Of a stretch of DNA of 64,000 bases, positions 10,918-44,321 are shown piece after piece; the first letter of the stretch is position 1; each line of letters opens with the position of its first letter. The DNA comes from Escherichia coli (GTDB taxonomy: Bacteria; Pseudomonadota; Gammaproteobacteria; Enterobacterales; Enterobacteriaceae), in the NCBI RefSeq assembly GCF_003018235.1, contig NZ_CP027437.1, one strand, 5' to 3'. The notes below the pieces were generated by a model. The model made no database searches, was not told the DNA's origin, and saw nothing but the letters and a program-made list of their open reading frames with translations. The position numbers were made by a program, and so were the translations under genes.

Positions 10918-11102
10918 CTCCTTATATTGCTATATATCCAATAAACCTGAAGATGCTTGCTTACCCACCAATGCAGACGGGACCAAGGGTAGCCTGAAGT
11001 CAACAGATAGCAATCAACTTGAAGTTCATGGGTATATTTTTTCCCCATCTACACGTTTATCGTCATATTTTTGTATAGCTATTCTCAGCATTCGTGGGCA
11101 CA

Positions 11103-11834: not shown

Positions 11835-11863
11835 CGCCGGAGCCGATACCACTGCCCGGCGAA

Positions 11864-15730: not shown

Positions 15731-15949
15731 TATTGTTCAGAACTCCACATTGTAATCATCAACAATAAAAGGCCACAAGCTGAAAATGTTTTCCCGATTC
15801 AGCACAAAAAAATAGATGGCGATCCGAAACATCACTAAACCTGAAAAATAAAATTTCGCAGCATCATTTTATTTACATCATCACGCAACAACGTTGTCAT
15901 TATTAGGTTTATGCTCAATATTTTAATTTATATACAAAATCATTCGAGT

Positions 15950-16050
15950 TGCATCAAGGCGGCAAGCGAGAGGATCCCGAAGCATTTATTCCGGTAAGTG
16001 ACTCGGGTGAACGAGTGCAGTCAACGCAGAGGCAACCTGAAGGATAAGGT
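15950..16050. repeat. ERIC/IRU-like intergenic repeat
   Basis: Contains GGTAAGTGACTCGGGTGAACGAGTGCAGTCAACGCAGAGGCAACCTGAAGG, closely resembling the ERIC core (AAGTAAGTGACTGGGGTGAGCG...), in the gap between the Tldi1-like gene and tssM. Confidence 0.5.
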
Positions 16051-16057
16051 GTATACA

Positions 16058-16513
16058 TCAAAATTCTCTGGATAGAATAATATAGCCATTGAATCTTACG
16101 GAACACTCATTTTCATTAATAAGGCCGGATGCAATAACAACATCTTTCCCCCTGTCATTGTTAATATAGGTATATTTTGCCACAATAGACTTAGCATGAT
16201 TTTCATAGTAGCTATCAAAATACGATTTTTCATCTAACATTGCCTTCTTATTTCTGGCTTTGTCCTTCTCATAATCAATCTTAGCCAGAGACTCTGCATA
16301 AAACTTAGACACAGGAGAAACATCAAGAACTTCTACCCTTGTTTTATCTCTTAAAATAGTAGAAGAATTTATATTCAAATCACTTTTCATTGCATCAAAT
16401 AACGACAACTCTATTGAGGCTCCAACCGTAGCGCAACCATCATTTTGTGCATATGAAATTGCAGGTATGCCAGCTAACAGGCAGATTATTACCTTGAACA
16501 TATTAGTCCTCAA
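16058..16513 (-). CDS. Periplasmic protein, candidate Tldi1-like immunity protein
   Basis: 151 aa with signal peptide (MFKVIICLLAGIPAISYAQ); AT-rich; overlaps the upstream effector-like gene. Confidence 0.5.
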   Translation of the reverse strand: MRTNMFKVIICLLAGIPAISYAQNDGCATVGASIELSLFDAMKSDLNINSSTILRDKTRVEVLDVSPVSKFYAESLAKIDYEKDKARNKKAMLDEKSYFDSYYENHAKSIVAKYTYINNDRGKDVVIASGLINENECSVRFNGYIILSREF

Positions 16514-16871
16514 CCACTAATATTTTATCAGTACTGGCAGCAATAACCTTGCGATAAGGTAAATCCAGAATTATACAGCCATCAGAGGCTTCTCCTGGAT
16601 GGGCTGAACTCTCTCCGTGTATCATGAAACCGTCACGCCCGCACATTTGATTTTCGGGGTAAGGCGTGAGCCTCATCGTCCATGCTCTTGTTCTTGCATG
16701 AAAAAATGCAGGTCCAATTGTATATGAACCTCTTGGCAATGGTCCCTTATCTCTTACACACTCATTAACAGAGTCATCTTTAAAACCCGGTCTGCCAGAA
16801 TATCTGGCATTGAACTGATAGCTACCATTTAAATAAAATGAACGTGCATTAATTTTGTATACCCAAGGCAT
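16503..16871 (-). CDS. Tlde1-like (DUF2778, L,D-transpeptidase-fold) candidate T6SS effector
   Basis: 122 aa; motif IHGESSAHPGEASDGCIIL (His ... x14 ... Gly-Cys) resembles the L,D-transpeptidase/Tlde1 catalytic motif; AT-rich; followed by a signal-peptide protein. Confidence 0.5.
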   Translation of the reverse strand: MPWVYKINARSFYLNGSYQFNARYSGRPGFKDDSVNECVRDKGPLPRGSYTIGPAFFHARTRAWTMRLTPYPENQMCGRDGFMIHGESSAHPGEASDGCIILDLPYRKVIAASTDKILVVED

Positions 16872-16962
16872 TACACAATCTCCTTTTTGTTAAAAAATAA
16901 TAGTCAGATCAGAACACCATATTTTATTGTTAGTTTTCTGACCTAACCATAGTCATATTAAT

Positions 16963-18279
16963 TCACTCCACCACCAGAATTTCCACCCGACGGTTCTGCG
17001 CCCGTCCGGTTTTAGTGCGGTTATCGGCCACCGGTACGGTATCTCCTTTCCCGACAACCCGGATCCGGCTGGCCGGAATACCACCGGACGTCAGCAGTGA
17101 AGCCACTTCCGCCGCCCGTTTTTCCGACAATACCTGGTTGGACGGGAATTCAGCGGAGTGGATCGGCTGGCTGTCCGTGTGGCCGGTCACCGTCACCGCG
17201 CCCCCCACACGCGCAATCTCACGCGCGGCCTTGTCAATCACCGGGCGCAGCGCATCATTCACGGTTTTCTGCCCCGGTATAAACATCGTATCGCCACGAA
17301 AGATTACACGGCTGTGATGGTCATCTTCCTCCACCGTCAGCAGGCCACGGGCGATTTCGTTCGCCAGCAGGATTTTCAGCCGCAGTTTATGCACTGGAAC
17401 GGGTGGCGGCGGTAGATTTTTACCAATGGCGTCGATACGCTGTTGTACGGTTTCGGTGGCGAGGTTCATCCGGTGGCTGTAAAGGCCAAACAGCGTCAGC
17501 ATCACCAGCAGGGCGATTCCGGCGCTCAGCCAGACCGGCACCCGGCGCATCCGCCGCATTCGCCCACTGACGGCACCGGCAAAACCCGGCGAGAGCGTCG
17601 GCGTGATCGGATCGCGACGCTGGACCAGTTGAGTCAGCAGTTGCTGGCGGATATCGTCCAGTTGTTTACGCCCGTCAGGCCGTACACTGTAGCGGCCTTC
17701 AAAACCCAGTCCCAGAATGTGGTAAATGATTTCCAGTACATCGCTGTGCTCCTGGAAGCTGGCGGCCAGACGCCCGATTATCTGAAACAGCTTGATGCCG
17801 CCTTCACTTTCGCCATGAAAAGTCACCAGCAGGCTCTTCCCGGCCCAGACACCGCGTCGCCCCCAGACGGTGTTGTTGGCAGCTTCATCCAGCGCCGTGC
17901 ACACGCAGTAACGTACCGCCAGCACATGTTCGCGGCGCAGGTTTGCCTGGTCGCACAGCGTCTGATACCGGCGGACTTCACGCTCCAGTAGGGCGCGATA
18001 ATGTTCGACAAAACCAGGGGAAAGTTCACGGGGCATTTGCGCCAGCGCGCATAACAGAGGGCTGGCCGCCGCCAGAAGAGGATTCACAGCAGCAGTGATC
18101 TCAGCCAAGCGGAGCTTCAAATCTGGCCCGTCTTCAACCACCACCTTTATATCTTCCCTGCGAAGGCTGTCCTGGACGAGCGTATCGTAACCGTCATTAT
18201 CAGGCGACCTTGTTCCCCTTATTGAAGGCTGTAATTGCAGGGTATTCACCGCAGGTTGCGTCAGAATATCGTCGGTCAT
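16963..18279 (-). CDS. tssL: TssL (DotU-like) fused to a C-terminal OmpA/MotB-type peptidoglycan-binding domain
   Basis: 438 aa; central TM segment; C-terminus ...VTGHTDSQ...SEKRAAEVASLL...NRRVEILV is a typical OmpA-like motif. Confidence 0.85.
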   Translation of the reverse strand: MTDDILTQPAVNTLQLQPSIRGTRSPDNDGYDTLVQDSLRREDIKVVVEDGPDLKLRLAEITAAVNPLLAAASPLLCALAQMPRELSPGFVEHYRALLEREVRRYQTLCDQANLRREHVLAVRYCVCTALDEAANNTVWGRRGVWAGKSLLVTFHGESEGGIKLFQIIGRLAASFQEHSDVLEIIYHILGLGFEGRYSVRPDGRKQLDDIRQQLLTQLVQRRDPITPTLSPGFAGAVSGRMRRMRRVPVWLSAGIALLVMLTLFGLYSHRMNLATETVQQRIDAIGKNLPPPPVPVHKLRLKILLANEIARGLLTVEEDDHHSRVIFRGDTMFIPGQKTVNDALRPVIDKAAREIARVGGAVTVTGHTDSQPIHSAEFPSNQVLSEKRAAEVASLLTSGGIPASRIRVVGKGDTVPVADNRTKTGRAQNRRVEILVVE

Positions 18280-19619
18280 TTATCGCGAACTCCCCACAGC
18301 TCCAGCTCCAGCCCTGGAAACTCTCCGGCGGTATGCATTGCCATGCCACCATAGCGGGCGATATGTTCCCACAACACGCCGTCGCGGCGGATGTCGTAAT
18401 AGATGTAACCGGACTGGAACGGGATCTGACGCGGTGGCACTGGCAGCATCTGTAGAACAAGACCAGGAAGGTGCGAGCGAATCAGTTCCGGCAGGCGTTC
18501 TGACGGCCCTATTTTGGTCTGAGCCGAAAAATGTTGTAGTAAGGTGTCGGCGGACATCTGTGCCTTCACCGCCAATACTAACGAGCTGAAATCTGACAGT
18601 TCGGTAGGTTCAACCACCGCATTGAGAATACCGTAAGTTCCCTCTTCCAGAGGGATTCGCTGCGCCCCACGTATTAGCACAGCATTCAGCAGATACTGAA
18701 CCTCGTCCACCACCGATTTCAGCCCGGCATAGGGCGTCAGGTGCTTATATTCTTTATATTCTTCCGGACGACGTGTTTGCGGACGCACGTAGGTAGAGAG
18801 TTCTCCGGCCAGTGCGCAGAGGTTACGATAGAGTACTTCAGGCGATAGCGGCGTTTTCGACATATGGATCAATAAGGGGCCGAAACGATTAAGAACTTGC
18901 AGAAGCAGGTAATCCGACACTTCCGCCGCTTCATGACCGTGTTTGTCGCTCCCCGTCAATCGTTCCGCCAGCGAATCTGCACGCATTTTTATCAGATCGT
19001 TAATCCACGACAGCCAGGTACATATCAGCGTACTGGCCTGGTAGTTCGCCACTGGCGGGATCAACTCTTTGTCTATATCGACCCGACCATCGGGATGCAG
19101 CGCCGTGATGCGCGTCAGCGGCAGGCCGATCCACGCGTCTGTCACCGCCTTTTCCGGTAACAGTCGCAAGCGCAGGTGGCTAAGTTGCAGCAGTTGCGCG
19201 CCTCGCCCCAGCGAATTGGCATCACGGATTTCACTTTCATGTACCGAAAAACGTGCCAGTGATTCAGGGTTATTGTCGAAACTGGTTTCTTCACTGTTCG
19301 GCGTACGTATTGGCACAGCCAGATAAATCAACTGGTTAAGATGTTCTGGAAGGATGGTCAGAGGCGGCGGGAGTGGTGTATGACCCGGCGCATTAAAAGG
19401 TGTACCGTCAGCAAATACCCCGGAAGCCTTCGTAAGTACCAGTTTTCCGATGTTCAGCGCCTCACTACCAATACCATACTCATTGAAGCCCCAGTAAAAA
19501 GGTGAAAGAGGCAAACTGCGATAATGAATGACATGTTCCAGATAGCGTTCCTGCTGCTGAAACATCTGTGGCAACAAAAATTGTCCTTCACTCCAGACCA
19601 CCCGGTTATTCCAACTCAT
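18276..19619 (-). CDS. tssK: TssK baseplate protein
   Basis: 447 aa; N-terminus MSWNNRVVWSEGQFLLPQMFQQQ is characteristic of TssK. Confidence 0.9.
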   Translation of the reverse strand: MSWNNRVVWSEGQFLLPQMFQQQERYLEHVIHYRSLPLSPFYWGFNEYGIGSEALNIGKLVLTKASGVFADGTPFNAPGHTPLPPPLTILPEHLNQLIYLAVPIRTPNSEETSFDNNPESLARFSVHESEIRDANSLGRGAQLLQLSHLRLRLLPEKAVTDAWIGLPLTRITALHPDGRVDIDKELIPPVANYQASTLICTWLSWINDLIKMRADSLAERLTGSDKHGHEAAEVSDYLLLQVLNRFGPLLIHMSKTPLSPEVLYRNLCALAGELSTYVRPQTRRPEEYKEYKHLTPYAGLKSVVDEVQYLLNAVLIRGAQRIPLEEGTYGILNAVVEPTELSDFSSLVLAVKAQMSADTLLQHFSAQTKIGPSERLPELIRSHLPGLVLQMLPVPPRQIPFQSGYIYYDIRRDGVLWEHIARYGGMAMHTAGEFPGLELELWGVRDK

Positions 19620-19622
19620 AAT

Positions 19623-20156
19623 TTACTCATCCCGTTCTTTAATCACTATGGCGCTTTGCTCTATGCCAGCATCCAGTTCGACTTTTTTCTTTGGCATAAA
19701 GCGGCTGTACCAACTTTTTTCCGGTGGATCAGGAATTTTATATGTAGCCCGCCAGACCGATTTTCCCAGATTGCGGTATCCGGCGAGGATCCCCAGCGTG
19801 GTAGTTTCCTTATTGAGGGCGCGGCGTAATTTTTTCTCCTCGCCCGGACGCAGGATAAAGCTGTCGCGGTGGAGTAAATCATCGGCAAGAACAGCCTTGT
19901 CATTGTCCTGAAGGGACCACCAGTCCGCCGCCGTGAAAGCTGCATCAATTTTCAGTTCATAAACGCGTATCTCTATGGGCGCGGCTTTTTTCTGATTGTC
20001 AGGATTCATCTTATCGGAAGCCTTAATCACCAGATCGAGTCTTTGTGACATCAGGTCCGGCACGTCGTCGCTGTCAATGCTGCACCCGGAAAGCAGGAAG
20101 ACAAAAGACAAAGCTACCGCACATAACCACCCACCGGGGTTACGCCATTTATTCAC
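19623..20156 (-). CDS. tssJ: TssJ outer-membrane lipoprotein
   Basis: Lipobox LLSGC; start proposed at the GTG preceded by AAGGAA (MNKWRNPGGWLCAVALSFVFLLSGC...). Confidence 0.8.
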   Translation of the reverse strand: MNKWRNPGGWLCAVALSFVFLLSGCSIDSDDVPDLMSQRLDLVIKASDKMNPDNQKKAAPIEIRVYELKIDAAFTAADWWSLQDNDKAVLADDLLHRDSFILRPGEEKKLRRALNKETTTLGILAGYRNLGKSVWRATYKIPDPPEKSWYSRFMPKKKVELDAGIEQSAIVIKERDE

Positions 20157-20223
20157 TTTAATTTCCTTTAAAATCAAATAATAAAAACCGGCCAAGCTAT
20201 ATACCTGGCCGGGAAAATGTTGC

Positions 20224-20709
20224 TTAAATTTCTTTGTTAGCTTTGAAATCGTAACCTGCCGTGATAGTGCCGCCGCTGCCGCCCTGCTGGTTCTGCACCA
20301 CGTATTCCTGCTTCACGGTGCTGAAAGAGAGTTCGACTGACTCACGAGAAGCTATTTCTCCCCCCTGACTCCCGCTGGGCGAAACCATTGCTACGATCAA
20401 ATCAGTAAAACTGTATTTGAGGTATTCCAGTGGGTTGCCGCCTGCTTTGCGCATGGTCAGCACGGCTTTCGGAATGTGTTTGCCGGAGGCGCAGTATTTG
20501 AACAGGTTCGGGCTGGCGCGATCGATATAGTGTTCAAATGAAAGATTAGTTACGGATACCTTGCCGGATCCCAGACCGCTACCCGCGTGCATGGTGGACT
20601 CCTGGTGGATATTCCAGCGCCAGCTCAACACCTCAATTTCATTTTTATGTTTGTCATCCATTGACTCGCCGTCAATGCCGTCAATTTTCAGAAAAATATC
20701 ATAAGACAT
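20224..20709 (-). CDS. hcp: Hcp (TssD) tube protein
   Basis: 161 aa; MSYDIFLKIDGIDGES... is a typical Hcp N-terminus. Confidence 0.92.
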   Translation of the reverse strand: MSYDIFLKIDGIDGESMDDKHKNEIEVLSWRWNIHQESTMHAGSGLGSGKVSVTNLSFEHYIDRASPNLFKYCASGKHIPKAVLTMRKAGGNPLEYLKYSFTDLIVAMVSPSGSQGGEIASRESVELSFSTVKQEYVVQNQQGGSGGTITAGYDFKANKEI

Positions 20710-20820
20710 ATTTCATACCTTTTATTTAAATTAATTTTGGTTTATCCGCTTACAAATAAACCATTACTTTACAACACTCTTCCACATATGGAATCGGCAG
20801 AACAAAGGATTGAATATATT

Positions 20821-21192
20821 TCATTTCTTAACACTCCTGGAAATCAACTCATCCAATTCATTTCCATGAATGAAATCTATACATTTCATAGTACTGAAGT
20901 CTGATGCTATAGAACCATCATATTTTAATGATGCATATTTTCTCGCTATCGCATCTATTTCACGAAAAATTTCTACAGGTTGCTGACCATATTCAAGATA
21001 AGCACTAGCTGTAGCTCTGGCATCATCCTGAACGACATCATTTTTATACACCAATGACAAACAATGACTCAAAGCCCAATTGCGTAAGAGCTCTGACTGA
21101 GAATATTTTTCAGTCAATGCTTCCTGAGCATAAGATAATTGACATATCTGTAGCCCACAGAGGCCCCAAAATATTAATTTCAGCCATTTCAT
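20821..21192 (-). CDS. tai4: Tai4-like periplasmic immunity protein
   Basis: Signal peptide (MKWLKLIFWGLCGLQICQLSYAQE); start ATG overlaps the tae4 stop (ATGA), suggesting translational coupling. Confidence 0.6.
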   Translation of the reverse strand: MKWLKLIFWGLCGLQICQLSYAQEALTEKYSQSELLRNWALSHCLSLVYKNDVVQDDARATASAYLEYGQQPVEIFREIDAIARKYASLKYDGSIASDFSTMKCIDFIHGNELDELISRSVKK

Positions 21193-21674
21193 GGTAGTAC
21201 CCACAGGATTCCGACTTCAGGAACAAATGTTCCATTATCTGGATCATTTAGTAGATGGCATTGATCTGAACAAACGCTACCATTCCATAATGTTACATGT
21301 CCCCGAGCATTGCTCCAGCCATGGCCTTTTACAACAATGATGCCTTTTTTACCTGTAAAGTCACCAGGAGTTGGATTATTAATGACAAGATCTGGCTTCC
21401 CCATAATCTGGGTCAGATGTTCAATCATATCATTCACACGATAAATATAAAATTTCTTATCAGAACCACTAACCGTTGCATAGGGAGAACTACGGGATAT
21501 CGGAAATCCCGTAGCATTCAAAACATAACTCATACGAATTGGACAAGCATTTTCAAAATAGCCACCTGAAATATTTTGCCCAACATTTCCGCCAATTATA
21601 AGACCGACATCAGCAACGGGAAAATTCACTTTTCCAAATGCCGACCATGCCTCATTAAATGAAGGTCTACCCAT
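21189..21674 (-). CDS. tae4: Tae4-family peptidoglycan amidase effector
   Basis: 161 aa; Cys44 (ENACPIR) and His126 (ARGHVTLW) are positioned as I recall for the Tae4 catalytic dyad; AT-rich; followed by a signal-peptide protein. Confidence 0.65.
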   Translation of the reverse strand: MGRPSFNEAWSAFGKVNFPVADVGLIIGGNVGQNISGGYFENACPIRMSYVLNATGFPISRSSPYATVSGSDKKFYIYRVNDMIEHLTQIMGKPDLVINNPTPGDFTGKKGIIVVKGHGWSNARGHVTLWNGSVCSDQCHLLNDPDNGTFVPEVGILWVLP

Positions 21675-21726
21675 TTTCTTTATCCTCTAAAAAATCTGCA
21701 TCACAAGCTTTATGAAATATAATAAA

Positions 21727-23241
21727 TCAGGTATTACCCTGTTTTACCGACGGCAGTTTTGTGACCAGACGCAGTGATCCTGTTAACCCTTCAAGCTGAA
21801 AATGCGGGCGCAGGAAGAATTTGGCATCGTAATAATCCGGATTACCTTCCACCTCTTCCACCACCACTTCAGCAGCTGCCAGTGGGCGACGAGCTTTGGT
21901 TTCCTGTGAGGAGTTCACCGGATCGGCATCGACGTAGTTCATGATCCACTCATTGAGCCAGCGCTGCATATCTTCACGCTCTTTGAACGAGCCGATCTTG
22001 TCGCGCACGATACATTTGAGGAAGTGCGCAAACCGTGAACAGGCGAAAAGATATGGCAAACGAGCTGAGAGATTGGCGTTGGCCGTAGCGTCCGGATCGT
22101 AATACTCCTGCGGTTTTTGTAGAGACTGAGCGCCAATAAAGGCGGCGTAATCAGAGTTTTTGCGGTGGATAAGTGGGATAAAACCATTTTTCGCCAGTTC
22201 AGCTTCACGACGGTCAGAGATGGCAATTTCTGTCGGGCATTTCATATCCACGCCGCCGTCATCGGTCGGGAAGGTATGACAGGGCAGATTTTCCACCGCG
22301 CCACCAGATTCAACACCGCGGATCAACGTACACCAACCGTAATGTTTGAAAGAGCGGTTGATATTTACACCCATTGCATAGGCGGCATTGCTCCAGACAT
22401 ATTTGCTGTGATCTGCGCCATCCGCATCTTCTTCAAAATCAAACTCATCGACAGGGTTTGTTTTCGCACCATAAGGCAAACGGGAGAGAAAACGTGGCAT
22501 CGTCAGGCCAATGTAGCGAGAATCCTCACTTTTTCGCAGCGAGTTCCACGGTGCGTATTCGAGGTTTTGGGTCACAATTTTGGTCAGATCACGCGGGTTA
22601 GCCAGTTCCTGCCAGGAGTCCATCTGCAACACTGACGGAGAGGCCCCAGCAATAAACGGCGCATGGGCTGAGGCTGCCACTTTGGCAATGGAGCCGAGCA
22701 GATCCACATCCGGTGGCGTGTGATCAAAATAATAATCCGCAATGATACAACCGTAAGGTTCTCCGCCTAACTGTCCATATTCAGCTTCATAAAGCTTTTT
22801 GAACATGGGGCTTTGATCCCAGGCGATCCCTTTGTAACGCTTCATATTTTTCCGCAATTCATCCTTTGAAAGATTCATAAAACGGATTTTTAATTTTTCA
22901 TCGGTTTCAGTGTTGTAAACCAAATGTTCCATCCCACGCCAGGAGGACTCCAGTTTCTGAAATTCCGGATGACTCAGGATTAGTTTGATCTGCTCAGTTA
23001 ATTTGAAATCGATCTGCTCAATAATCGCAGCAATACTTTTATAAGCGTCGTCACTGACGGTGACGGTATTTGTCAAAGCCTGTTGGGCCAGCGTCTGAAC
23101 TGCTGCCTCAACAGCCTTTGCTGCCTGAGGTGTCTTGGGACGGAAGGCTTTATCCAGGAGCGAATCAAATTCAGTGTCCTGATAGGCAGTGGTTTGCGCA
23201 GCAGAGAGTTCGCCAGTCGCCAGAAGAGTATCGTTTACCAT
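21727..23241 (-). CDS. tssC: TssC (VipB) sheath large subunit
   Basis: 504 aa; conserved TssC sequence throughout. Confidence 0.92.
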   Translation of the reverse strand: MVNDTLLATGELSAAQTTAYQDTEFDSLLDKAFRPKTPQAAKAVEAAVQTLAQQALTNTVTVSDDAYKSIAAIIEQIDFKLTEQIKLILSHPEFQKLESSWRGMEHLVYNTETDEKLKIRFMNLSKDELRKNMKRYKGIAWDQSPMFKKLYEAEYGQLGGEPYGCIIADYYFDHTPPDVDLLGSIAKVAASAHAPFIAGASPSVLQMDSWQELANPRDLTKIVTQNLEYAPWNSLRKSEDSRYIGLTMPRFLSRLPYGAKTNPVDEFDFEEDADGADHSKYVWSNAAYAMGVNINRSFKHYGWCTLIRGVESGGAVENLPCHTFPTDDGGVDMKCPTEIAISDRREAELAKNGFIPLIHRKNSDYAAFIGAQSLQKPQEYYDPDATANANLSARLPYLFACSRFAHFLKCIVRDKIGSFKEREDMQRWLNEWIMNYVDADPVNSSQETKARRPLAAAEVVVEEVEGNPDYYDAKFFLRPHFQLEGLTGSLRLVTKLPSVKQGNT

Positions 23242-23265
23242 GAAAGTTCCTTAATAAAATCGCAG

Positions 23266-23811
23266 TTAGTCTGCTGTTCCCGTTTCACCTGATAAGACAC
23301 TTTCCTGTTGAGCGACAGGTTTTGGCGCACTAGCCAGAGCTTTCAGTAACGTAGGGTCTTGTAATAGTTTGTTGATAAGATTTTCTGCTCCCGCTTTACC
23401 ATCCATGTAGGTTTGTAGGTTGGCAAGCTGAGTACGCGCTTCCAGCAGCTGGTTCAGGGCATCCACCTTACGGGCAATCTGCGCAGGCGAAAAATCGTCC
23501 ATATTCTCTAACGTGATATCGACCATTAACTGCCCTTCGCCCGTCAGCGTATTGGGGACAGCAAACGCCACGCGCGGCGCAATGGCTTTCATCCTCTCGT
23601 TGAAGTTATCGATATCAATATCAAGGAATTTACGATCGGTGACCGGCGGCAGCTCTTCACGCGGTTTACCCGCCAGGTCGGCCAGCACCGCCATGACAAA
23701 CGGCAGTTCGATTTTTTTCTCGGAGCCGTAAATCTCAACGTCATACTCAATCTGCACGCGGGGCGCGCGGTTGCGGGCAATAAACTTCTGCGCGCTGTTG
23801 TTGATAGCCAT
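23266..23811 (-). CDS. tssB: TssB (VipA) sheath small subunit
   Basis: 181 aa; MAINNSAQKFIARNRAPRVQIEYDVEIYG... is typical of TssB. Confidence 0.92.
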   Translation of the reverse strand: MAINNSAQKFIARNRAPRVQIEYDVEIYGSEKKIELPFVMAVLADLAGKPREELPPVTDRKFLDIDIDNFNERMKAIAPRVAFAVPNTLTGEGQLMVDITLENMDDFSPAQIARKVDALNQLLEARTQLANLQTYMDGKAGAENLINKLLQDPTLLKALASAPKPVAQQESVLSGETGTAD

Positions 23812-23872
23812 AATCCTTCATTTCCTTATCAGTCAGCCGACGACCACCTGGGGAGTGGCCCGACGGTACAGT

Positions 23873-24163
23873 TTAAAAATCATACGCAGAGAGTATTTTT
23901 ATAATCTCTTTGTTTTCTTTGTACTTTTCCCGAAGCACAGGGAGTGATTTCTTCGCCGGAGGACACCAGGTATCAACCCCCTTTTCGATGTCTCTTTTAT
24001 CCTTCTTTGGTAAAGAACTGTCCCATTCACCAGCAAGATGCTGGCACATTTCCGCATTACTCAGAAAATGCTGCACATCCTGTGGTAAAGGCGGTTCCCC
24101 CTGAACACAGAAAGCGAACATCATTAACAGGAATGTCAACAACATCGGATAACGAAATGTCAT
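23873..24163 (-). CDS. Small exported protein, candidate immunity protein for the adjacent zinc peptidase
   Basis: 96 aa; N-terminal signal peptide (MLLTFLLMMFAFCVQG); starts 3 bp after the upstream ORF stop. Confidence 0.45.
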   Translation of the reverse strand: MTFRYPMLLTFLLMMFAFCVQGEPPLPQDVQHFLSNAEMCQHLAGEWDSSLPKKDKRDIEKGVDTWCPPAKKSLPVLREKYKENKEIIKILSAYDF

Positions 24164-24165
24164 AC

Positions 24166-24729
24166 TTAATGTCCATCAATTGACCAGTGAGGTATATCTG
24201 TATTGCCGCCAACAAATTTTCTGACGCCGTAACCCAGACCTACCGCCTGAAGCTGGGCATTCATTCCGGTTCGAGGTAGTGTATTAATTGCAACATTCTG
24301 ACCATTGCTCCCCGCAATTGTTAATGTTCCGCTCCAACTGATATTCATATCTATCGCAGTACCGCGTGTATGGTTGGAGCTCAGTGCAGGCGCGACATTC
24401 AGATTATTCATACCATAGGCCGTAACCATAGCCTGCGCCGCTTCAAGCGAGGCTTGCTCAGTCGGGTGAACCCACTCAATATCCATCCCCTCCATCGCCG
24501 GGACGTTTTTTGCCTGAACGATTTCATGAGCAATCAACCATGACCAGTGCATGAGATATGCTCTGGCGGGAGGGCGATATGTTGCAGAGATACTGACCCT
24601 TGCACGCGCATTACCAAGCGCGCGCAAAAAATTATCTACCGATGCACGAAAAGTCCCCTGCAAATCATTAGTGGAAGAACTTCCAGGAAAGCGACTGACC
24701 CACAGTGCGCCACTTAATTCTTTTGCCAT
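24166..24729 (-). CDS. LAS/M15-type zinc peptidase-like protein (H-x6-D ... D-x2-H); candidate peptidoglycan-targeting T6SS effector
   Basis: 187 aa; SSNHTRGTAIDMN (SxHxxGxAxD-like) and TDIPHW motifs; no signal peptide; sits between clpV and tssB with a downstream signal-peptide ORF. Confidence 0.5.
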   Translation of the reverse strand: MAKELSGALWVSRFPGSSSTNDLQGTFRASVDNFLRALGNARARVSISATYRPPARAYLMHWSWLIAHEIVQAKNVPAMEGMDIEWVHPTEQASLEAAQAMVTAYGMNNLNVAPALSSNHTRGTAIDMNISWSGTLTIAGSNGQNVAINTLPRTGMNAQLQAVGLGYGVRKFVGGNTDIPHWSIDGH

Positions 24730-24741
24730 AAGGATGCTCCA

Positions 24742-26223
24742 TTAATCCGTTTCAAAAATAATCTGTTCATCCTCATCAACACGAATGCGGATTTGCGTGA
24801 TGGCCGTTTTCTCTGTCATCGCCTGCAACCAATAACGGGACAGTTGTGGGAGGATATGTTGTTCGATATAGCCGATGAGCAAACGAGCGCCGGTTTCGTG
24901 CATCGGGCAGCGCGACACAATATGCGTAATCAGTTCATCGCCATACACCAGTGAAACGCCATGCTGCTCCGCCATCCGATCCATCAATCTGCCAAGATGC
25001 AGGCGGGCAATAACACCACGCGCGGTCTCATCCAGCGGTAAATAAGGAATAACCGTCACACGCCCCAGGAAAGCCGCCGGGAAGTGTTTACGTAACTCCG
25101 GCATTAACGCCTCTTTTAGTCCTGCCGAATCAGGCATCAGCGCCGGATCCTTTTCGATATGGCGTTTGTACTCGCTCCAAGTGGTTGCGCCGATGGTGCG
25201 CAGGGTGCCACGCGCCAGCGCCGGTTTCAGCAGGTTGGCAGCATCCCCCGTACCGGATGTACCACCAGCGCCCACCAGCGTGTGAACTTCATCAACAAAA
25301 AGGATTACCGGCTGCGGCGAGCGCGCGGCCTCTTCTAGCAACGCTTTCAGGCGGGATTCAAATTCACCCTTCATGGACGCCCCAGCCAGCAGCGCTCCAA
25401 CATCCAGTGACAGCAACCGCACGTTACGCAGTGAAGGCGGTACTTCCCCCCCGGCAATCGCCAGCGCGAATCCTTCCACCACTGCCGTTTTCCCGACTCC
25501 CGCTTCGCCGGTCAGTAGCGGGTTGTTCTGGCGACGGCGCAGCAGAATATCCGTCATAGTACGGATCTCGTGTTCGCGACCGGTGACCGGATCGATATTG
25601 CCTTCACGGGCCAGCGCAGTCATGTCCTGGCAGTATTTCGCCAGCGCGGATTTGCTTCCGGTTGATTCGCCGGCAAAGACCTGGCTAGCTTCCCCCGGTA
25701 CTGCAGAATTTAAATCCGAGCCGTCATAAGGCATTTCTGTTAATTCAGGAGATGAAGTGATTAAAGACGGAAGAATATCTAATAGTTCATCTACCGGTAG
25801 CTCTGCCAATGGCGCACAAATATTTTTTAACACCCGACACAATTCTGGCGTGGTTAACCAGGCAAGTAATAACCATCCACTACGAATTTTTTTATCGCCA
25901 AAGCGGATACTTGCCAACATCCAGGCTTTTTCAACAGAAAGATCGATATGATGGGAAAAATCGTTAATTACACTCGCTCCGGCAGGCAATATATTCAATT
26001 GCTGAATTAACGCCTTCTCAACATCAGCAGATGTTATTTGATAATGTCGAAGCACATTGTGAATGTCATTCTCTGGTTGTTGTATTAACTGATGCAACCA
26101 ATGCGTCAGTTCGACATAAGGATTAGCGCGTAATTTACAGAACGTCGTCGCAGATTCCAAAGATCTAAACAAAGATTTGGTTAGCTTTCCATACAGTGCA
26201 CTGCGCGAAACAGGAGTGTCCAT
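24742..26223 (-). CDS. clpV: ClpV (TssH) AAA+ ATPase with an apparent in-frame internal deletion (N-domain plus first ATPase domain joined to the C-terminal small domain)
   Basis: 493 aa against about 850-900 expected. Walker A GEAGVGKT and Walker B ILFVDEVH of the first domain run to ...IEKDPAL, joined directly to ...[24 protein letters not shown]...GARLL..., the ClpB/ClpV C-terminal signature. Confidence 0.8.
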
Positions 26224-26555
26224 CTGTTACACCTAATGATGTAAGAACATATAAATGATACATAAACATAACTGTACCGATTAAAACTTCTAATTAATAG
26301 AATTATCAAAAAGGCCGAATGAAACAATGATGCATATCACAGAACACAATGTAATATAGCAGGTAGTATCTTTTTCATGGTGATATTCAATAGAGCAAGC
26401 CAATTTCATACATACCATGAATATATTAAATTGAAAATCGCCACTATATATTTCCGCGAAAACTTATATTGATAAAGTAAATTGATCAGCATTGCTTATC
26501 TAAAAATTTAGAAAACTTATTCTTTTGAAAGAAACATTCTACACAGTGATACACA
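26224..26555. promoter_or_regulatory. AT-rich divergent control region between the clpV operon and the tagH-tssA operon
   Basis: 332 bp, strongly AT-rich, between divergently transcribed T6SS operons; contains a GATC site near 26483. No promoter elements individually mapped. Confidence 0.5.
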
Positions 26556-27470
26556 ATGAAACCAAATATTACGTGGGGACTCCAAAAAATACAGGCGCAC
26601 GGGATCGCCGATAACACAATTTACGCGACTGAAGGAACCCAAATTATCTTCACCGTTACCTCACCCTGGATTCCTGTTTTTGAGGTGAATGATGATGTAA
26701 AGATTGCCCTCAGTCTGACCCGCCACGAAGAAGCATGGTGGATTATCAATCAGTCTACCGAATATTGCTGTACGGTAAACGACCAGATTGTGGAACCTCA
26801 TCACCGTATGCGTCTGAATGAAGGCGATCTGATAGAATGGGGGTTATCTTCATGGTGCCTTGTGCACGGCAATCCATCATCTCCGGACCTGAGCGCAGTA
26901 AATACGACATCGCAGACTGCCACCATGTCGGAAACAATAACCGAATATCTGGATCTGGATTGGTTCAGGCAGCAGCATCTGACATCACAAAATCCATTCG
27001 ATATCATTCCTGTTCATGGAGCCTCCTCCACTGGAGAAGATGCTAAAAAAGAAAATGCCCTGACTCGACTTTATCAGGAATACCGCGAGGCGTTGTTATC
27101 TCCTGAACAAGATCTTCATCGCCATGCTGATCCTTTTCCCTTTAACGAAGAGCCCTCCTCACAGGATCTGGATTCATTGCGTGATCTGGTCACTGAAGCC
27201 GAGACATTGCAGGATATGGTCACTGGCGGGTTAAGCATTGACGCTATTCTCGATGTCCTGGACGCCACCGGCGAAGGGGAAACCGCCTGGCCTGCCGAAA
27301 AGACGCCCCCAGATATCCTGCACCTGCTATCCCCGGAATGCGCACCGGAAACAGCGCATAACACCGTTCTACCCGACCTGACACGCAAAGAGCATCGCAT
27401 CATTGGCATTGACAGCCATTATCGGATAAACCCGGCACAACACGGAGAGATATCTCATGACAAACAATAA
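26556..27470 (+). CDS. T6SS-associated protein, possibly FHA-domain (TagH-like)
   Basis: 304 aa; first gene of the plus-strand operon; N-terminal region has a weak FHA-like pattern; C-terminal half is acidic and low complexity. Confidence 0.4.
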   Translation: MKPNITWGLQKIQAHGIADNTIYATEGTQIIFTVTSPWIPVFEVNDDVKIALSLTRHEEAWWIINQSTEYCCTVNDQIVEPHHRMRLNEGDLIEWGLSSWCLVHGNPSSPDLSAVNTTSQTATMSETITEYLDLDWFRQQHLTSQNPFDIIPVHGASSTGEDAKKENALTRLYQEYREALLSPEQDLHRHADPFPFNEEPSSQDLDSLRDLVTEAETLQDMVTGGLSIDAILDVLDATGEGETAWPAEKTPPDILHLLSPECAPETAHNTVLPDLTRKEHRIIGIDSHYRINPAQHGEISHDKQ

Positions 27471-28287
27471 CGAGCTACCGGCTACCCTGTCGGCGCTGCT
27501 GCGGGATTATTCCGTGGCGGAGGGCATTCAAATGGCAGAGCAGCAGGTCAGGATGCACCCGGCGCAGGCCTCCCGCCGCCACAGCTTATTTCAGTTATTG
27601 TGCGTGGCAGGCTACTGGTCGCGGGCACTGCAACAGATCCAGCTATGCGCCCGGATGGACGCAAATTATACCCGCGAAGCGCAGGTATTTGGCGAGCTGA
27701 TACGCTGTGAGATATACCGCCACGCCTGCTTTCAGGGAGAACAGCGGCCCGATTTTATTCTCCCGCCGCCCGCCTGGATGGAGGATCTGCTGACCGCCCT
27801 CGCCTGTAACGCTCGTGGTGAAGCGCAGGAAGCTGACGCCCACCGCAGCCGCGCACTTGAGGCCATAACAGATACTGCAGGGCAGTGGAATGGCGGCGCA
27901 TTTGACTGGATTAGCGACAGCGACTCCCGTACCGGTCCGGTACTCGAACTCATCGCGGGCGGAGTATATATCTGGCTGCCGTTTTCACAAATCTGTTCGC
28001 TAAAATCGCCGCGGCCTGCGCATCTGACCGATTTGATCTGGAAACCCGTCAACGTCACACTGAATAATGGCGACACACACAGTGCCTGGCTGTTTTCCCG
28101 CTACAGCGGCTCTGAAAAGGCTGCCGACTCCCTGCGTCTGTGCCGGGAAACGGTCTGGCAGGACGGGCCGGGAGAGACTCTGGTACAGGCGCTGGGTCAG
28201 AGGGTGTGGCTCACCGGTCACGGCGATATCAGCCTGCTGGATTTGTCCACCTGTACCTTTAACACCGCTGAAGGAAGCGACGCGTGA
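27457..28287 (+). CDS. tagJ: TagJ (ImpE-family) T6SS accessory protein
   Basis: 276 aa; LFQLLCVAGYWSRALQQIQL, FDWISDSDSRTGPVLELIAGGVYIWLP and SRYSGSE match conserved ImpE/TagJ blocks (recalled). Confidence 0.8.
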   Translation: MTNNNELPATLSALLRDYSVAEGIQMAEQQVRMHPAQASRRHSLFQLLCVAGYWSRALQQIQLCARMDANYTREAQVFGELIRCEIYRHACFQGEQRPDFILPPPAWMEDLLTALACNARGEAQEADAHRSRALEAITDTAGQWNGGAFDWISDSDSRTGPVLELIAGGVYIWLPFSQICSLKSPRPAHLTDLIWKPVNVTLNNGDTHSAWLFSRYSGSEKAADSLRLCRETVWQDGPGETLVQALGQRVWLTGHGDISLLDLSTCTFNTAEGSDA

Positions 28288-28778
28288 GCGCTTCCCGCCA
28301 GCGTCCGGGCAATCACCTGCTGCCCACGCTGTTTGACCGCCTGTGTGATGATGCCCCAAACCAGAAACGCGACCACGATATCAGCGTCAGCCCGGTTCAG
28401 CTTAAGGAGATCATTCGCCGGGATTTGTCATTTCTGCTCAACACCGTCAGCCATGAAGATGATATTGATGCTGCACGTTATCCGGACGCGGCAGCGTCCG
28501 TACTGAACTACGGCCTGCCGCCACTGGCGGGCAGCTTTCTGTATGAACACAAGTGGGACGATATTCGCAGGGCCATTTTGCGTACCATCATCCGGTTTGA
28601 ACCCCGGCTGAAAGCGTCCACCCTGCAAATCATCCCACTTCAGGATGAGCGCCACCAGAGCGGCCATAACACATTACAGTTTGAAATTCGCGGCGAGATC
28701 CTCACGCAGCCCTACCCGATGGCATTCCGGGTACGCAGCGCGCTGGATATGGAACAGAGCCGCATTACGTTTTTTTAA
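28284..28778 (+). CDS. tssE: TssE (gp25-like) baseplate protein
   Basis: 164 aa; the PTLFDRL motif is typical of TssE. Confidence 0.88.
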   Translation: MSASRQRPGNHLLPTLFDRLCDDAPNQKRDHDISVSPVQLKEIIRRDLSFLLNTVSHEDDIDAARYPDAAASVLNYGLPPLAGSFLYEHKWDDIRRAILRTIIRFEPRLKASTLQIIPLQDERHQSGHNTLQFEIRGEILTQPYPMAFRVRSALDMEQSRITFF

Positions 28779-28793
28779 TTCAGAGAGAAACCG

Positions 28794-30677
28794 ATGGATC
28801 CACGGCTACTGGAATACTACAACCGCGAACTGAGCTATCTGCGGGAAACGGGAGCCGAATTTGCCGCCCGTCATCCTAAAGTCGCCGCCCGACTGGGTAT
28901 GCAGGGAACGGATATTGCCGATCCGTATGTGGAGCGAATGGTCGAGGCCTTCAGCTTCCTGACCGCCCGCACGCAGCTAAAAATTGACGCTGAATTCCCC
29001 CGTTTCACCCAGCGTCTGCTGGAAGTGGTCAGCCCCAATTACGTCACACCCACGCCCTCAATGAGCGTGGCGCAGCTTCATCCCGATCCGGAAGAAGGCG
29101 ATCTGGCGAAGGGATTCACCGTCCCGCGCAACACGGCCTTTTTTTCCGCCATTCCGGAAGGCGAAAGTACCGCCTGCCAGTTTCGTAGCAGCCAGAATGT
29201 GACGCTGTGGCCACTTGCCATCGAAGAGGTGCGGCTGACCGCCGCGCCGCCGGATATGCCTGCCCTGCACCGCTACCTGCCAGCCAACATTCACGTCGCT
29301 GGTGCGCTGCGTATTACCCTGCGCACCTTTGGTGAACTGACGTTCAGTCAGCTTGCAGGGCTGAACAAGCTGCCATTTTATCTCTGCGGCGAGGAGCGCA
29401 CGGCCTCACACCTGTTCGAACTACTGCATACCAGCGCCATCGCGAGCCTGGCTGGCATTCCGGGGCATTTTGACGGCGCACTGGATGTGAATCTGAAACA
29501 GCCCGTTATGTACGAAGGCCTGGATCCGGATCAGGGACTGTTGCCGCTGGCGTGGAATGTGTTTCACGGCCATAACCTGCTACATGAATATTTTACCTGT
29601 CCGGAACGCTTCTTTTTTTTCACCCCGACAGGCCTGTCTGCCGGGTTACAGAAAATTAACGGCGGCGTGGCGGAGATTGTTATCCTGCTGAACCGCCTGC
29701 CGCCGGACTGGCTGATCCACCAGACAAACGCGGCACAGTTCAGCCTGTTCTGTACCCCAGTTATCAACCTGTTTCCCCGCGTCGCCGCCCGGATCGATGT
29801 CACGCACAGCACGACGGAACAGCATCTGGTGGTGGACAGAACCCATCCGCTGGATTATGAGGTGTTCTCGGTCCAGGAAGTGGAAGGGCTGGAAACTGAC
29901 ACCACACGGAAGATGGCCTTTCGCCCGCTCTACCACACCCGCAATAATGATGAAGGCAATCACGGACGTTATTTTTCCCTGCGCCGGGAGCCGCGCCGGT
30001 TGTCGGAAAATGCCCGCCGCTATGGCACCCGCACCTCCTATACAGGATCAGAAGTGTTCCTGTCGCTGGTTGACCAGTATGAAGCGCCGTACCCGGAAAA
30101 TCTGCGCCATATCACCATCACGGCTATGGTCACCAACCGCGATCTGCCCTGTCTTATTGCCCGCAATGGACGGGACGATCTGACCGTGGATGCGGCCATC
30201 CCGGTGGCGGGCGTGGGGCTTATCCGTCCGCCGCGTCCGCCGCAGCCTCCGCTGGCTGAACGTGAAATGGCCTGGCGGTTGATCCGCCAGTTATCCTTTA
30301 ACTATCTGCCGCTGGCCGATCTGGATCACCGTACCGGTGGTCAGGCGCTGCGCGATCTGCTTAACCTGTTTATTCCGGCGCATGACAGTCCGCAGTCGCG
30401 CCAGGTGCGCAGCCTGATTGGCTGCAACACCACCCCGGTCACCCGCCGTCTGCCCGGTTCCGGGCTGCTGGTCTATGGGCGCGGCGTCAGTTGTGAACTG
30501 ACCGTGGATGAGGAGGGGTTCTCCGGTATCAGTCCGTATCTGTTCGGTCTGGTGTTGGAGCACTATATCGCCCGTCATGTTTCCATTAATACCTTCTCGC
30601 AGATGACGCTGCACAGCATGCAGCGCGGCAAAATTATGACCTGGCCTGCCAGGGCGGGACAGCGGGGAAGCGTATGA
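28794..30677 (+). CDS. tssF: TssF baseplate protein
   Basis: 627 aa; MDPRLLEYYNRELSYLRETGAEFAARHPKVAARLG is a typical TssF N-terminus. Confidence 0.92.
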   Translation: MDPRLLEYYNRELSYLRETGAEFAARHPKVAARLGMQGTDIADPYVERMVEAFSFLTARTQLKIDAEFPRFTQRLLEVVSPNYVTPTPSMSVAQLHPDPEEGDLAKGFTVPRNTAFFSAIPEGESTACQFRSSQNVTLWPLAIEEVRLTAAPPDMPALHRYLPANIHVAGALRITLRTFGELTFSQLAGLNKLPFYLCGEERTASHLFELLHTSAIASLAGIPGHFDGALDVNLKQPVMYEGLDPDQGLLPLAWNVFHGHNLLHEYFTCPERFFFFTPTGLSAGLQKINGGVAEIVILLNRLPPDWLIHQTNAAQFSLFCTPVINLFPRVAARIDVTHSTTEQHLVVDRTHPLDYEVFSVQEVEGLETDTTRKMAFRPLYHTRNNDEGNHGRYFSLRREPRRLSENARRYGTRTSYTGSEVFLSLVDQYEAPYPENLRHITITAMVTNRDLPCLIARNGRDDLTVDAAIPVAGVGLIRPPRPPQPPLAEREMAWRLIRQLSFNYLPLADLDHRTGGQALRDLLNLFIPAHDSPQSRQVRSLIGCNTTPVTRRLPGSGLLVYGRGVSCELTVDEEGFSGISPYLFGLVLEHYIARHVSINTFSQMTLHSMQRGKIMTWPARAGQRGSV

Positions 30678-31669
30678 GCGACGATTTCACTCAGGCGCAG
30701 GAAACCCCCTGGCGTTACGGTTTTCTGAACCTGATGCGCCGCGTGGATGTGCAGTTGTGTACCGTTCCGGCAGGCAACACCTGGCAACCACGGATGGAAA
30801 AATTTCGCCTCGGACAAACTCCCGCGCTGACCTTTGCGCCACGGGAAATCGCCAGTGTGAGCTGGCAGGAAGAGCGGCTGCACATCAGTTTGTACAGTCT
30901 CGGGCTGTGGGGGCCGAACGGTCCACTGCCGCTGCACTACACCGAACTGGCGCGCAACCGGACTGAAAGCCGAAGAGACCCGACGCTAACCCGTTTTTCT
31001 GATCTTTTTCATCACCGCTGGCTGACGCAGTTTTACCAGGCATGGCGCAGCGCCCAGTCCGCTGGGGGCGGTCTGGATAAACCACAACATGACCGTTTTG
31101 CCTTTTATATCGCCAGCCTCAGCGGGCAGGATTTGCGGGAGAGCGCCGACAGCCCGTTGCCGGATCACGCTCGCCTGGCGGCATCGGCCCATCTGGTGCG
31201 TGAGTCCCGCAATCCGGACGGTCTGGCCACCACGCTGGCGCACTATTTCGGTGTACCTTTCCGGATACAGGAGTATGTCCTGCACTGGATAGCCGTGGCG
31301 GACGATGAGATCACCCGGCTGGGGATGCCAGCCCCCTCTTCCGTTATTGGCAACGGTGCACTCATCGGCCAGGCCGTGCCGGACATGCAGTATAAGTTCC
31401 GGCTGGTTATCGGCCCGCTGACGCTGGAGGATTACCGACGTTTTCTGCCTGGCGGCAATAACCTGCCAGTCCTGACAGAACTGGTCCGCGCCTTTAGCGG
31501 TTTTGAATACTGCTGGGAAATTGAGCTACAGCTAAAGCCCCACGCCGCCCCTCCGGCTGTTACCGGTGGTTCGTACCAACTGGGCTGGACCGCATGGGCG
31601 GGTAAAGCCATGCACGAAAACCCGGTGACGGGCATGATTTTCGAACCAGAACACTACCTGGCGCACTGA
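30674..31669 (+). CDS. tssG: TssG baseplate protein
   Basis: 331 aa; overlaps the tssF stop; typical TssG sequence. Confidence 0.9.
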   Translation: MSDDFTQAQETPWRYGFLNLMRRVDVQLCTVPAGNTWQPRMEKFRLGQTPALTFAPREIASVSWQEERLHISLYSLGLWGPNGPLPLHYTELARNRTESRRDPTLTRFSDLFHHRWLTQFYQAWRSAQSAGGGLDKPQHDRFAFYIASLSGQDLRESADSPLPDHARLAASAHLVRESRNPDGLATTLAHYFGVPFRIQEYVLHWIAVADDEITRLGMPAPSSVIGNGALIGQAVPDMQYKFRLVIGPLTLEDYRRFLPGGNNLPVLTELVRAFSGFEYCWEIELQLKPHAAPPAVTGGSYQLGWTAWAGKAMHENPVTGMIFEPEHYLAH

Positions 31670-31679
31670 GGATAATTTA

Positions 31680-32726
31680 ATGGATACATCCCTGTCTGAC
31701 CCAATTTCGGCAGAATGCCCCTGCGGCCCGGATCTGGAGTACGATCCGGAATACCTGCTACTGTTCACGCGCGCCGCACCGCGTGAAGAAGCGCAATACG
31801 GCGATTTTGTCAGTACGCCGGAAACCATTAACTGGGCGGAGCTTGAGCGGGATGCCTGCCGACTGCTGACGCGCAGCAAAGATATCCGCATTCTGGTTGT
31901 CCTGCTGCGCTGCCGTATCCAGCAGGCCGGTGCCAGGGGACTGGCGGAGGCGCTCGCGCTGCTGGAAACGTTGTGCGCCACGTACCCGAACGCCATCCAT
32001 CCTCAACTGCTCGCGACTGAAGATATCACCGCCGAAGAGGCGGCAGTGGCACGTAGTAACGCCCTGGCGGCATTGCTGGACCATGAAGGCGTAATAGCGG
32101 ATATTCGTGGCATTACACTGTCAAACAATGCTGCCATACGCCTTCAGGTACGGGATGTGGAGCGTTCGCTGTCTGCATCACGCCCGGCGGATGCGCTGGC
32201 ACCAGAATCGGTACGCCAGCAACTGGCCGACCTGGAGGCGCGCGGCACACTGCCGCTGGATGCCTTTCGCCAGGCCGCAGAGACCACTGAGCGGCTGCAA
32301 CGCCATGCGCTTGAAACGCTGAATGACCAGGCACCGAACCTATCCCGTCTGACACAATTGCTGGCCCTGTTGCCGGGAGCGATACGGACCACCACGCCGG
32401 AGATCCTGCCACAACCAGTGGCTGAACAGCCGGAGAGCACCACCATCGTTCATACTGAAGAGATATCATCAGAGCAGATTGCGCTACCGGTGCATATCGC
32501 GGAGGAAATATCACCGATGTCCGGCGCAGAACCCCGGCAGATCCGCGACCGGAACGACGCGCTGGAACGCCTGCGTGTCATCCGTCGCTGGTTTGAGCAC
32601 AGCGAACCGAGCAGCCCGACCATTCCTTTGCTGCGCCAGGCAGAACGCCTGGTCGGAAAACGCTTCTCGGAGGTAATAAATGAAATTCCAGTAGAACTGC
32701 TGGAAAAATGGGATGCGCTGGAGTAA
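31680..32726 (+). CDS. tssA: TssA-family protein (ImpA N-terminal domain)
   Basis: 348 aa; the N-terminal AECPCGPDLEYDPEY motif is typical of ImpA_N; shorter than many TssA proteins. Confidence 0.75.
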   Translation: MDTSLSDPISAECPCGPDLEYDPEYLLLFTRAAPREEAQYGDFVSTPETINWAELERDACRLLTRSKDIRILVVLLRCRIQQAGARGLAEALALLETLCATYPNAIHPQLLATEDITAEEAAVARSNALAALLDHEGVIADIRGITLSNNAAIRLQVRDVERSLSASRPADALAPESVRQQLADLEARGTLPLDAFRQAAETTERLQRHALETLNDQAPNLSRLTQLLALLPGAIRTTTPEILPQPVAEQPESTTIVHTEEISSEQIALPVHIAEEISPMSGAEPRQIRDRNDALERLRVIRRWFEHSEPSSPTIPLLRQAERLVGKRFSEVINEIPVELLEKWDALE

Positions 32727-32732
32727 CAGAAG

Positions 32733-32765
32733 TGGCCAGAATTTATATTATCTGGCCATTTTTTA
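32733..32765 (+). terminator. Rho-independent terminator after tssA
   Basis: Hairpin TGGCCAGA-atttatatta-TCTGGCCA followed by a T-run. Confidence 0.7.
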
Positions 32766-32857
32766 AATCATATTCGTTTTACTTGCGGAGTGAAAAATTC
32801 TCGCTTCACCAAAACGACGAAAGCCCGAATCAGTAATGATTCGGGCTTTCTGAATAT

Positions 32858-32934
32858 TGGCGGAACGGACGGGACTCGAACCCGCGACCCCCTGCGTGAC
32901 AGGCAGGTATTCTAACCGACTGAACTACCGCTCC
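32858..32934 (-). tRNA. aspV: tRNA-Asp (GUC)
   Basis: Reverse complement gives GGAGCGGTAGTTCAGTCGGTTAGAATACCTGCCTGTCACGCAGGGGGTCGCGGGTTCGAGTCCCGTCCGTTCCGCCA; lies next to dnaQ as in K-12. Downstream hairpin at 32821-32848. Confidence 0.97.
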
Positions 32935-40916: not shown

Positions 40917-41076
40917 AATATGCCTCTTTTAATGCTTTTCGTTAACTGAGGTGATTATGGGCTTCAGACTGTTGCGGAAAAAGAGCGTAAAACGCAGAGG
41001 ATTTTTGCGATTCTGGCAATAATAGATATCCAGACGAAAAAAAACCTCGAGCGTTAACTCGAGGATTCTTAATAAG

Positions 41077-41153
41077 TGGCGGAACGGACGGGACTCGAAC
41101 CCGCGACCCCCTGCGTGACAGGCAGGTATTCTAACCGACTGAACTACCGCTCC
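41077..41153 (-). tRNA. aspU: tRNA-Asp (GUC), distal gene of the rrnH operon
   Basis: Identical to the aspV tRNA sequence; follows the 5S rRNA; downstream hairpin (CCTCGAGCGTTAACTCGAGG) at about 41044-41063. Confidence 0.97.
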
Positions 41154-41205
41154 ACCGAATTCTTTTACAACCACCGGTTTTATGACCGGCTTACTGCTTA
41201 ATTTG

Positions 41206-41416: not shown

Positions 41417-44321
<2,905 letters not shown>

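Follow-up and report, generated by a model that had tools for sequence, protein, structure and literature searches.

The aspV-linked T6SS island and its tssH gene

The window, a stretch of 64,000 nucleotides of Escherichia coli DNA, contains a T6SS island of the SPI-6/TagJ type at 6947..32934. It lies at the tRNA-Asp gene aspV (32858..32934), adjacent to dnaQ and rnhA, and its type is indicated by tagK, tagJ, tae4/tai4 and a tlde1 pair. On the minus strand, tssH (clpV) heads a long gene run that continues with two small ORFs, tssB, tssC, tae4, tai4, hcp, tssJ, tssK, tssL, a tlde1 pair, tssM, tagF and vgrG. The plus strand of the island encodes tagK, tagJ, tssE, tssF, tssG and tssA. The tssH gene is encoded inside this T6SS core gene cluster. 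It occupies 24742..26223 on the minus strand, where the ORF listing gives a single frame with an ATG start and a TssH/ClpV product of 493 aa. The preliminary description of the locus had called this the sole ClpV-like ORF, and tblastn with full-length TssH as query indeed finds no second tssH copy in the window. A Shine-Dalgarno-like AGGTG lies upstream, the native start is kept and the reading frame is still open. Promoter and terminator scans around tssH return sites that are no more numerous than in shuffled sequence.

As reference we use the closest complete genome, E. coli MEI003 (NZ_CP071263.1), which is 99.6% identical across positions 1-25000 of the window. Apart from tssH, the island is intact by annotation and by tblastn of MEI003 proteins: the other annotated T6SS genes give full-length, gap-free matches with 98.4-100% amino acid identity. 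This set comprises tssA, tssB, tssC, tssE, tssF, tssG, tssJ, tssK, tssL, tssM, hcp, tagF, tagJ, tagK and the effector/immunity genes; an unnamed cluster ORF of 96 aa has 94.8% identity to MEI003. With tssH as the sole lesion among the T6SS genes, the island fits a recent event.

Several further features of the window deserve mention. Between tssH and tssB lie a 187-aa ORF (24166..24729, -) and a 96-aa ORF (23873..24163, -). In the 187-aa protein, the motifs HxxGxAxD and HWSIDGH recall peptidoglycan peptidases of the LAS/M15 kind, its search against Pfam and NCBIfam returns just a sub-threshold Peptidase_M15_4 match (E=0.12), and in one RefSeq genome it is named 'peptidoglycan-binding domain-containing'. 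The 96-aa protein has an N-terminus resembling a signal peptide, and the two ORFs may be a candidate uncharacterised T6SS effector/immunity pair. The vgrG ORF (6947..9784, -) encodes 945 aa with a complete VgrG core (TIGR03361, aa 112-626). The MEI003 vgrG, whose first 726 aa are identical to those of the window, carries the PGAP flag 'incomplete, missing C-terminus'; neither the C-terminal ~220 aa of VgrG nor an overlapping 165-aa ORF (6481..6978) matches a family. Downstream of vgrG follows an Rhs effector array (window 1..5813, MEI003 40017..46500) with a 1508-aa Rhs protein and orphan Rhs C-terminal fragments whose repeats are 92-94% identical. Short-read contigs of the clone described below end at the same place, as 24,480-bp contigs in two separate runs, probably because of the Rhs array. 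In dkgB (40117..40916, -), a G run near ~40417 is one nucleotide shorter than in MEI003 (CCTGGGCT to CCTGGCT), which breaks the 267-aa reductase into two frames; either the gene is a genuine pseudogene or the difference is a sequencing error in the homopolymer.

Extent, origin and inheritance of the deletion

The syntenic MEI003 gene is annotated as an 877-aa TssH. Aligned to it, the window gene shows a gap of exactly 1152 bp, equal to 384 codons (aa 363-746), and no frameshift. The ORF at 24742..26223 (-), with 493 codons and a stop, is thus a tssH(clpV) delta(aa 363-746) allele. It had been proposed from inspection of the window that roughly 350-400 residues, with the middle and second ATPase domains among them, are missing from this gene in frame. 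Alignment to the full-length protein maps this deletion to the base, locates the junction and leaves no room for two intact ATPase domains.

In the base-by-base comparison, the 410 nt at the plus-strand start, which are the 3' part of tssH, are identical to MEI003, and the final 1087 nt on the plus strand contain 3 mismatches. Over the retained 1482 nt this amounts to 3 substitutions, and the 493 residues that are left share 99.4% identity with MEI003 TssH. The two matching blocks overlap by 15 nt. The overlapping stretch reads AGGATCCGGCGCTGA on the gene strand and is a perfect direct repeat, present twice in the intact MEI003 gene, at gene nt 1073-1087 and 2225-2239, with a spacing of exactly 1152 bp. 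The two copies specify K-DPAL in D1 (aa 358-362) and E-DPAL in D2 (aa 742-746), respectively. In the window, the sole surviving copy forms the deletion junction at 25137..25151, reading TCAGCGCCGGATCCT on the plus strand. The 15-bp repeat is the longest exact direct repeat of the intact gene, followed by 12-mers, and repeats of at least 15 nt are reached in only 0.6% of 1000 codon-order shuffles.

Deletions between short direct repeats, by slipped-strand and RecA-independent routes, are a classic class of mutation in bacteria. The tssH deletion resembles them: both endpoints lie in identical, perfect ancestral repeats, one copy is kept, and the repeat used is the longest of the gene. From this breakpoint pattern we infer a slipped-strand or microhomology-mediated deletion, whose signature it bears. 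The intact gene would owe its repeat to the two ATPase modules, which both encode (K/E)DPAL with identical codons. During replication the nascent strand may slip between the repeat copies, or the copies may recombine illegitimately, and slippage would drop the intervening 1152 bp plus one repeat copy. With DPAL read in one frame from both repeats, an in-frame product is inevitable, and an in-frame outcome that is forced by the repeats is no evidence of selection. The mechanism would be ordinary for this class of deletions; the curiosity here is a repeat that encodes DPAL at matching positions of both modules. The locus thus offers a clean case in which a motif-encoding repeat in two ATPase modules appears to predispose a gene to one specific in-frame collapse.

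Independent assemblies from NCBI and Logan contain the identical 493-aa protein in at least 31 index blocks; it is also recorded in UniRef and has at least 7 NCBI protein accessions (e.g. EED1927599.1). We read 24 contigs with this protein, the longest of 5,012,557 bp. Its sources include GCA_012768955.1 and the SRA runs SRR30570690 and SRR6362503. Relative to the window, the deletion locus differs by 0 nt over 7.5 kb in SRR30570690, by 2 nt over 18.1 kb in SRR6362503 and by 4 nt over 21.5 kb in GCA_012768955.1; for comparison, MEI003 is 0.44-0.7% different. Such a range of 0-4 nt among deletion-bearing loci indicates that the allele is real, has a single origin and is inherited in a tight clone. 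A second 493-aa form with the same deletion differs by one residue and has Q111, as in full-length alleles. Given this deletion-bearing variant with the ancestral residue, K111 of the window (Q111K) arose after the deletion. A 501-bp query spanning the junction finds no match at 80% coverage or more in any of 5,426 complete RefSeq E. coli genomes, and the allele is therefore rare.

An assembly or sequencing artefact would mean that a repeat region has been collapsed and that the true genome holds a full-length tssH. Breakpoints within a repeat and a junction that occurs in no complete RefSeq genome are what such an artefact could produce. Against it stand the same junction and the same protein in many independent assemblies, derived from several SRA runs and NCBI assemblies with different runs and pipelines, and the sister allele, which has the deletion too. 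The repeat is moreover just 15 bp long, and assemblers use k-mers or read overlaps longer than 15 bp. The artefact reading retains next to no probability and is effectively refuted; the collapsed assembly that had been named earlier as a way to overturn the deletion is excluded by the independent assemblies. The deletion allele is clonally inherited and is not an assembly artefact.

Domains kept and lost in the 493-residue product

The N-terminal part of the protein is that of a ClpV. The N-domain (aa 1-160; 25744..26223, -), the domain for sheath and TagJ recognition, is retained. Residues 4-160 match the N-domain of P. aeruginosa ClpV1 (4uqw) with E=3.3e-39, EAEC ClpV1-N (4hh5) is matched with E=1e-10, and the AF2 model of this region is a helical bundle. 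The large subdomain of D1 follows at aa 191-362 (25138..25653, -) and is retained up to DPAL. Pfam places AAA at aa 236-346, and in the PDB alignment aa 189-362 pair with residues 156-329 of E. coli ClpB (E about 1e-61). The motif inventory of D1 comprises Walker A GEAGVGKT (aa 239; 25486..25509, -), the pore loop (25357..25386, -), which reads MKG and contains no aromatic residue, Walker B ILFVDEVH (aa 307; 25282..25305, -) and sensor-1 IGATT (25180..25194, -). The motifs and the N-domain quoted in the preliminary description are present in the sequence, at the coordinates it had given for the ORF.

IEKDPAL ends D1 at aa 356-362, and D2 C-terminal sequence follows directly after it. This remnant consists of the last 131 residues (aa 363-493; 24745..25137, -), of which aa 365-486 align to ClpB 733-852 in the PDB alignment. 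It holds the Arg-finger segment FLGR of D2 with R388 (25060..25071, -), a would-be strand beta5, and the D2-small domain (24808..25035, -), recognised by Pfam as ClpB_D2-small at aa 397-472. The sensor-2 GAR of D2, with R447, lies in TGARLL (aa 444; within 24877..24894, -).

The deleted segment takes in the middle domain. D2 loses its Walker A (aa 617), the GYVG pore loop (aa 664), Walker B (aa 686) and sensor-1 (N731), and D1 is left without the Arg fingers of TRRFQ (R364/R365), without strand beta5 and without its lid. Consistent with these losses, Pfam detects no AAA_lid_9 and no significant AAA_2 match in the 493-aa protein. An earlier view that the first AAA+ module is complete has to be given up, since the Arg fingers, beta5 and lid of D1 lie in the deleted segment. 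Class 1 Hsp100/Clp proteins are defined by two complete AAA+ modules, D1 and D2, both equipped with Walker A, Walker B, sensor-1 and an Arg finger, and the 493-aa protein does not have both. Judged by these alignments, the predicted product is a chimera of the D1 large subdomain and the D2 C-terminal part behind a ClpV N-domain.

The same loss is reflected in family scores. Against TIGR03345, the NCBIfam equivalog model for TssH, the protein scores 576.8 bits in two stretches, with a cut-off of 884.95; full-length MEI003 TssH scores 1218.4 bits. Annotation pipelines call the product "AAA family ATPase" without a pseudogene flag. The NCBI name is probably given because the TIGR03345 score falls under the cut-off, and a defective tssH passes unflagged under it.

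The foldability of the chimera was addressed by AF2 with 18 homologues spliced in the same way, which gives a shallow, artificially spliced alignment of 19 sequences. In this hybrid run the N-domain, the D1 core and D2-small are each modelled with confidence, the N-domain helical bundle with pLDDT of about 80-90. Confidence falls to pLDDT <50 at the junction (aa 358-365) and in the segment expected to be beta5 (aa 389-395), with no strand formed, and pTM is 0.38. A control run on the full 877-aa protein, for which these homologues were left unspliced, places the corresponding D2 stretch (aa 747-780) at pLDDT 80-90 and yields a strand at 774-777. The monomer models thus give no support for a folded hybrid AAA+ core or ring, which is not to say that they disprove one. 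With regard to topology, DPAL starts 11 residues past sensor-1 in D1 (T348 to D359) and 12 residues past it in D2 (N731 to D743), which suggests that D1 and D2 are joined at roughly equivalent topological positions. It is the order and spacing of the motifs that point to this equivalence; BLASTP of D1 against D2 gives an alignment limited to the Walker A regions.

Predicted consequence and related alleles

ClpV hexamers use ATP to thread the N-terminus of TssC/VipB through their pore, and pore mutations block sheath disassembly (PMC4632598, PMC4239648). The chimera would be unable to assemble into the double ring that threads and takes apart contracted TssBC sheaths, and the T6SS would then be non-recycling. 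We conclude that the window very probably carries a natural loss-of-function, or at best severely hypomorphic, tssH/clpV allele. With similarly high probability, the T6SS of this clone is predicted to be defective in recycling and to be null or strongly attenuated, a prediction that includes the presumed loss of ATPase activity and threading. The system would either be dead or fire occasionally from newly synthesised sheath subunits. Being in frame, the deletion should avoid polarity and should leave in place the expression of the genes downstream of tssH, for structural components, effectors and immunity proteins.

In EHEC, delta-clpV abolishes KatN secretion (PMC5363993), and the ClpVs of different clusters in EAEC are not interchangeable (PMC5048182). 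V. cholerae without ClpV has reduced T6SS activity, yet activity is present, probably through newly synthesised sheath subunits (PMC4632598, PMC4239648). By analogy with V. cholerae, where ClpV is dispensable in part, "T6SS dead" may overstate the phenotype. The intact remaining T6SS genes would also be compatible with a system still in use, and in a chimera that has one copy of each canonical AAA+ element, some residual ATP binding or oligomerisation is possible.

Of the two interpretations offered in the preliminary description, impaired sheath recycling and an unusual minimal ClpV, the former is the best-supported consequence of the deletion and the latter is not supported. A functional minimal ClpV would consist of a single hybrid AAA+ module, in which Walker A, Walker B and sensor-1 of D1 are combined with the Arg finger, beta5, sensor-2 and lid of D2, and which would hexamerise as a single ring and recycle sheaths. 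The order of the motifs, with DPAL 11 and 12 residues past sensor-1, supports positional equivalence; every canonical element is kept in one copy, the remainder of the island is intact, and the allele has persisted long enough to acquire Q111K. Nevertheless, the GYVG pore loop and the entire D2 motor are gone, and the remaining D1 pore loop, MKG, has no aromatic residue. Since BLASTP aligns D1 and D2 no further than Walker A, the beta5 strand and Arg finger of D2 would not be tuned to the D1 core, and AF2 leaves aa 358-365 and 389-395 at pLDDT <50 with no beta5, where the control has 80-90. An in-frame product was dictated by the repeats, the deletion arose at the longest slippage-prone repeat of the gene, 576.8 bits falls under the TIGR03345 cut-off, and the allele is confined to a single clone, with no occurrence among 5,426 complete genomes. 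We consider a functional minimal ClpV very unlikely.

A neomorphic or dominant-negative stub is conceivable in that the N-domain, which is intact and confidently folded, could dock on contracted sheaths or on TagJ, cap and stabilise them, and silence firing or take on another role. The tagJ gene is a neighbour, ClpV with a mutated pore still colocalises with sheaths that have contracted (PMC4632598), and a dominant-negative ClpV (STM0272) had phenotypes in Salmonella, as cited in PMC2907695. Dominance, however, presupposes a wild-type ClpV, of which the island has none, and the form that preferentially binds polymeric sheath is the ATP-bound hexamer (PMC4632598), which the chimera may not form. 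The population signal is again limited to one clone, and such a role is improbable. It is distinctly improbable that in-frame tssH deletions represent a recurrent, selected down-tuning of the T6SS that spares downstream genes from polar effects, with a chimera that might still bind or cap sheaths or remodel them weakly as a single ring. Independent in-frame deletions of tssH, listed below, are numerous in assemblies of E. coli and Salmonella and are compatible with selection of this kind, but they fit ascertainment bias equally well in a database that is so rich in assemblies of both.

The loss-of-function reading places the allele among known relatives. In locus, neighbours and orientation, with tagJ and tagK adjoining, the gene is like the full-length TagJ-class TssH/ClpV genes of the E. 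coli aspV island, of SPI-6 (SciG/STM0272) and of the P. aeruginosa H1-T6SS (ClpV1). It differs from them by the absence of aa 363-746 and by a score under the TssH cut-off. The window TssH is about 84% identical to Salmonella TssH. The ClpV of Salmonella SPI-6 is SciG, and serotypes I 4,[5],12:i:- and Choleraesuis carry it as a pseudogene (Blondel et al. 2009, PMC2907695). Both there and here, inactivation is restricted to a lineage and the orthologous island is mostly kept; the window allele differs from these pseudogenes in being a clean in-frame deletion at a 15-bp repeat that leaves an open 493-aa ORF. With pseudogenes of SPI-6 ClpV already documented, the window allele is an ordinary one, and it adds to the documented natural inactivation of ClpV in SPI-6-type islands.

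The value of the finding lies mainly in annotation and strain phenotyping. The complete-looking island of this clone would be scored "T6SS-positive" by methods based on gene presence, although sheath recycling is very likely lost according to our prediction, which calls for caution in presence/absence typing of T6SS. A new mechanistic question would arise only if the chimera proves active.

Many other in-frame tssH deletion alleles of the same orthologue group exist in public assemblies. For E. coli we find products of 723 aa (at least 39 contigs), 817, 849/852 and 851 aa, for Escherichia sp. E1130 one of 771 aa, and for Salmonella products of 574, 684, 737, 762, 780 (52 contigs) and 844 aa. 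The breakpoints fall in short repeated peptides, among them ETAL, PAL and ALT. Five of the E. coli/Escherichia alleles were compared as DNA with the MEI003 reference: three show microhomology of 9-11 nt, the other two only 2-3 nt. The window allele has different breakpoints, has lost the most sequence and uses the longest repeat. The recurrence of such deletions could reflect a deletion-prone gene or ascertainment bias. A different kind of rearrangement is seen in an 854-aa database protein, in which the ClpB N-terminus and early D1 are fused in frame to Salmonella TssH; it is either a clpB-clpV recombinant formed at a conserved stretch or a chimeric assembly.
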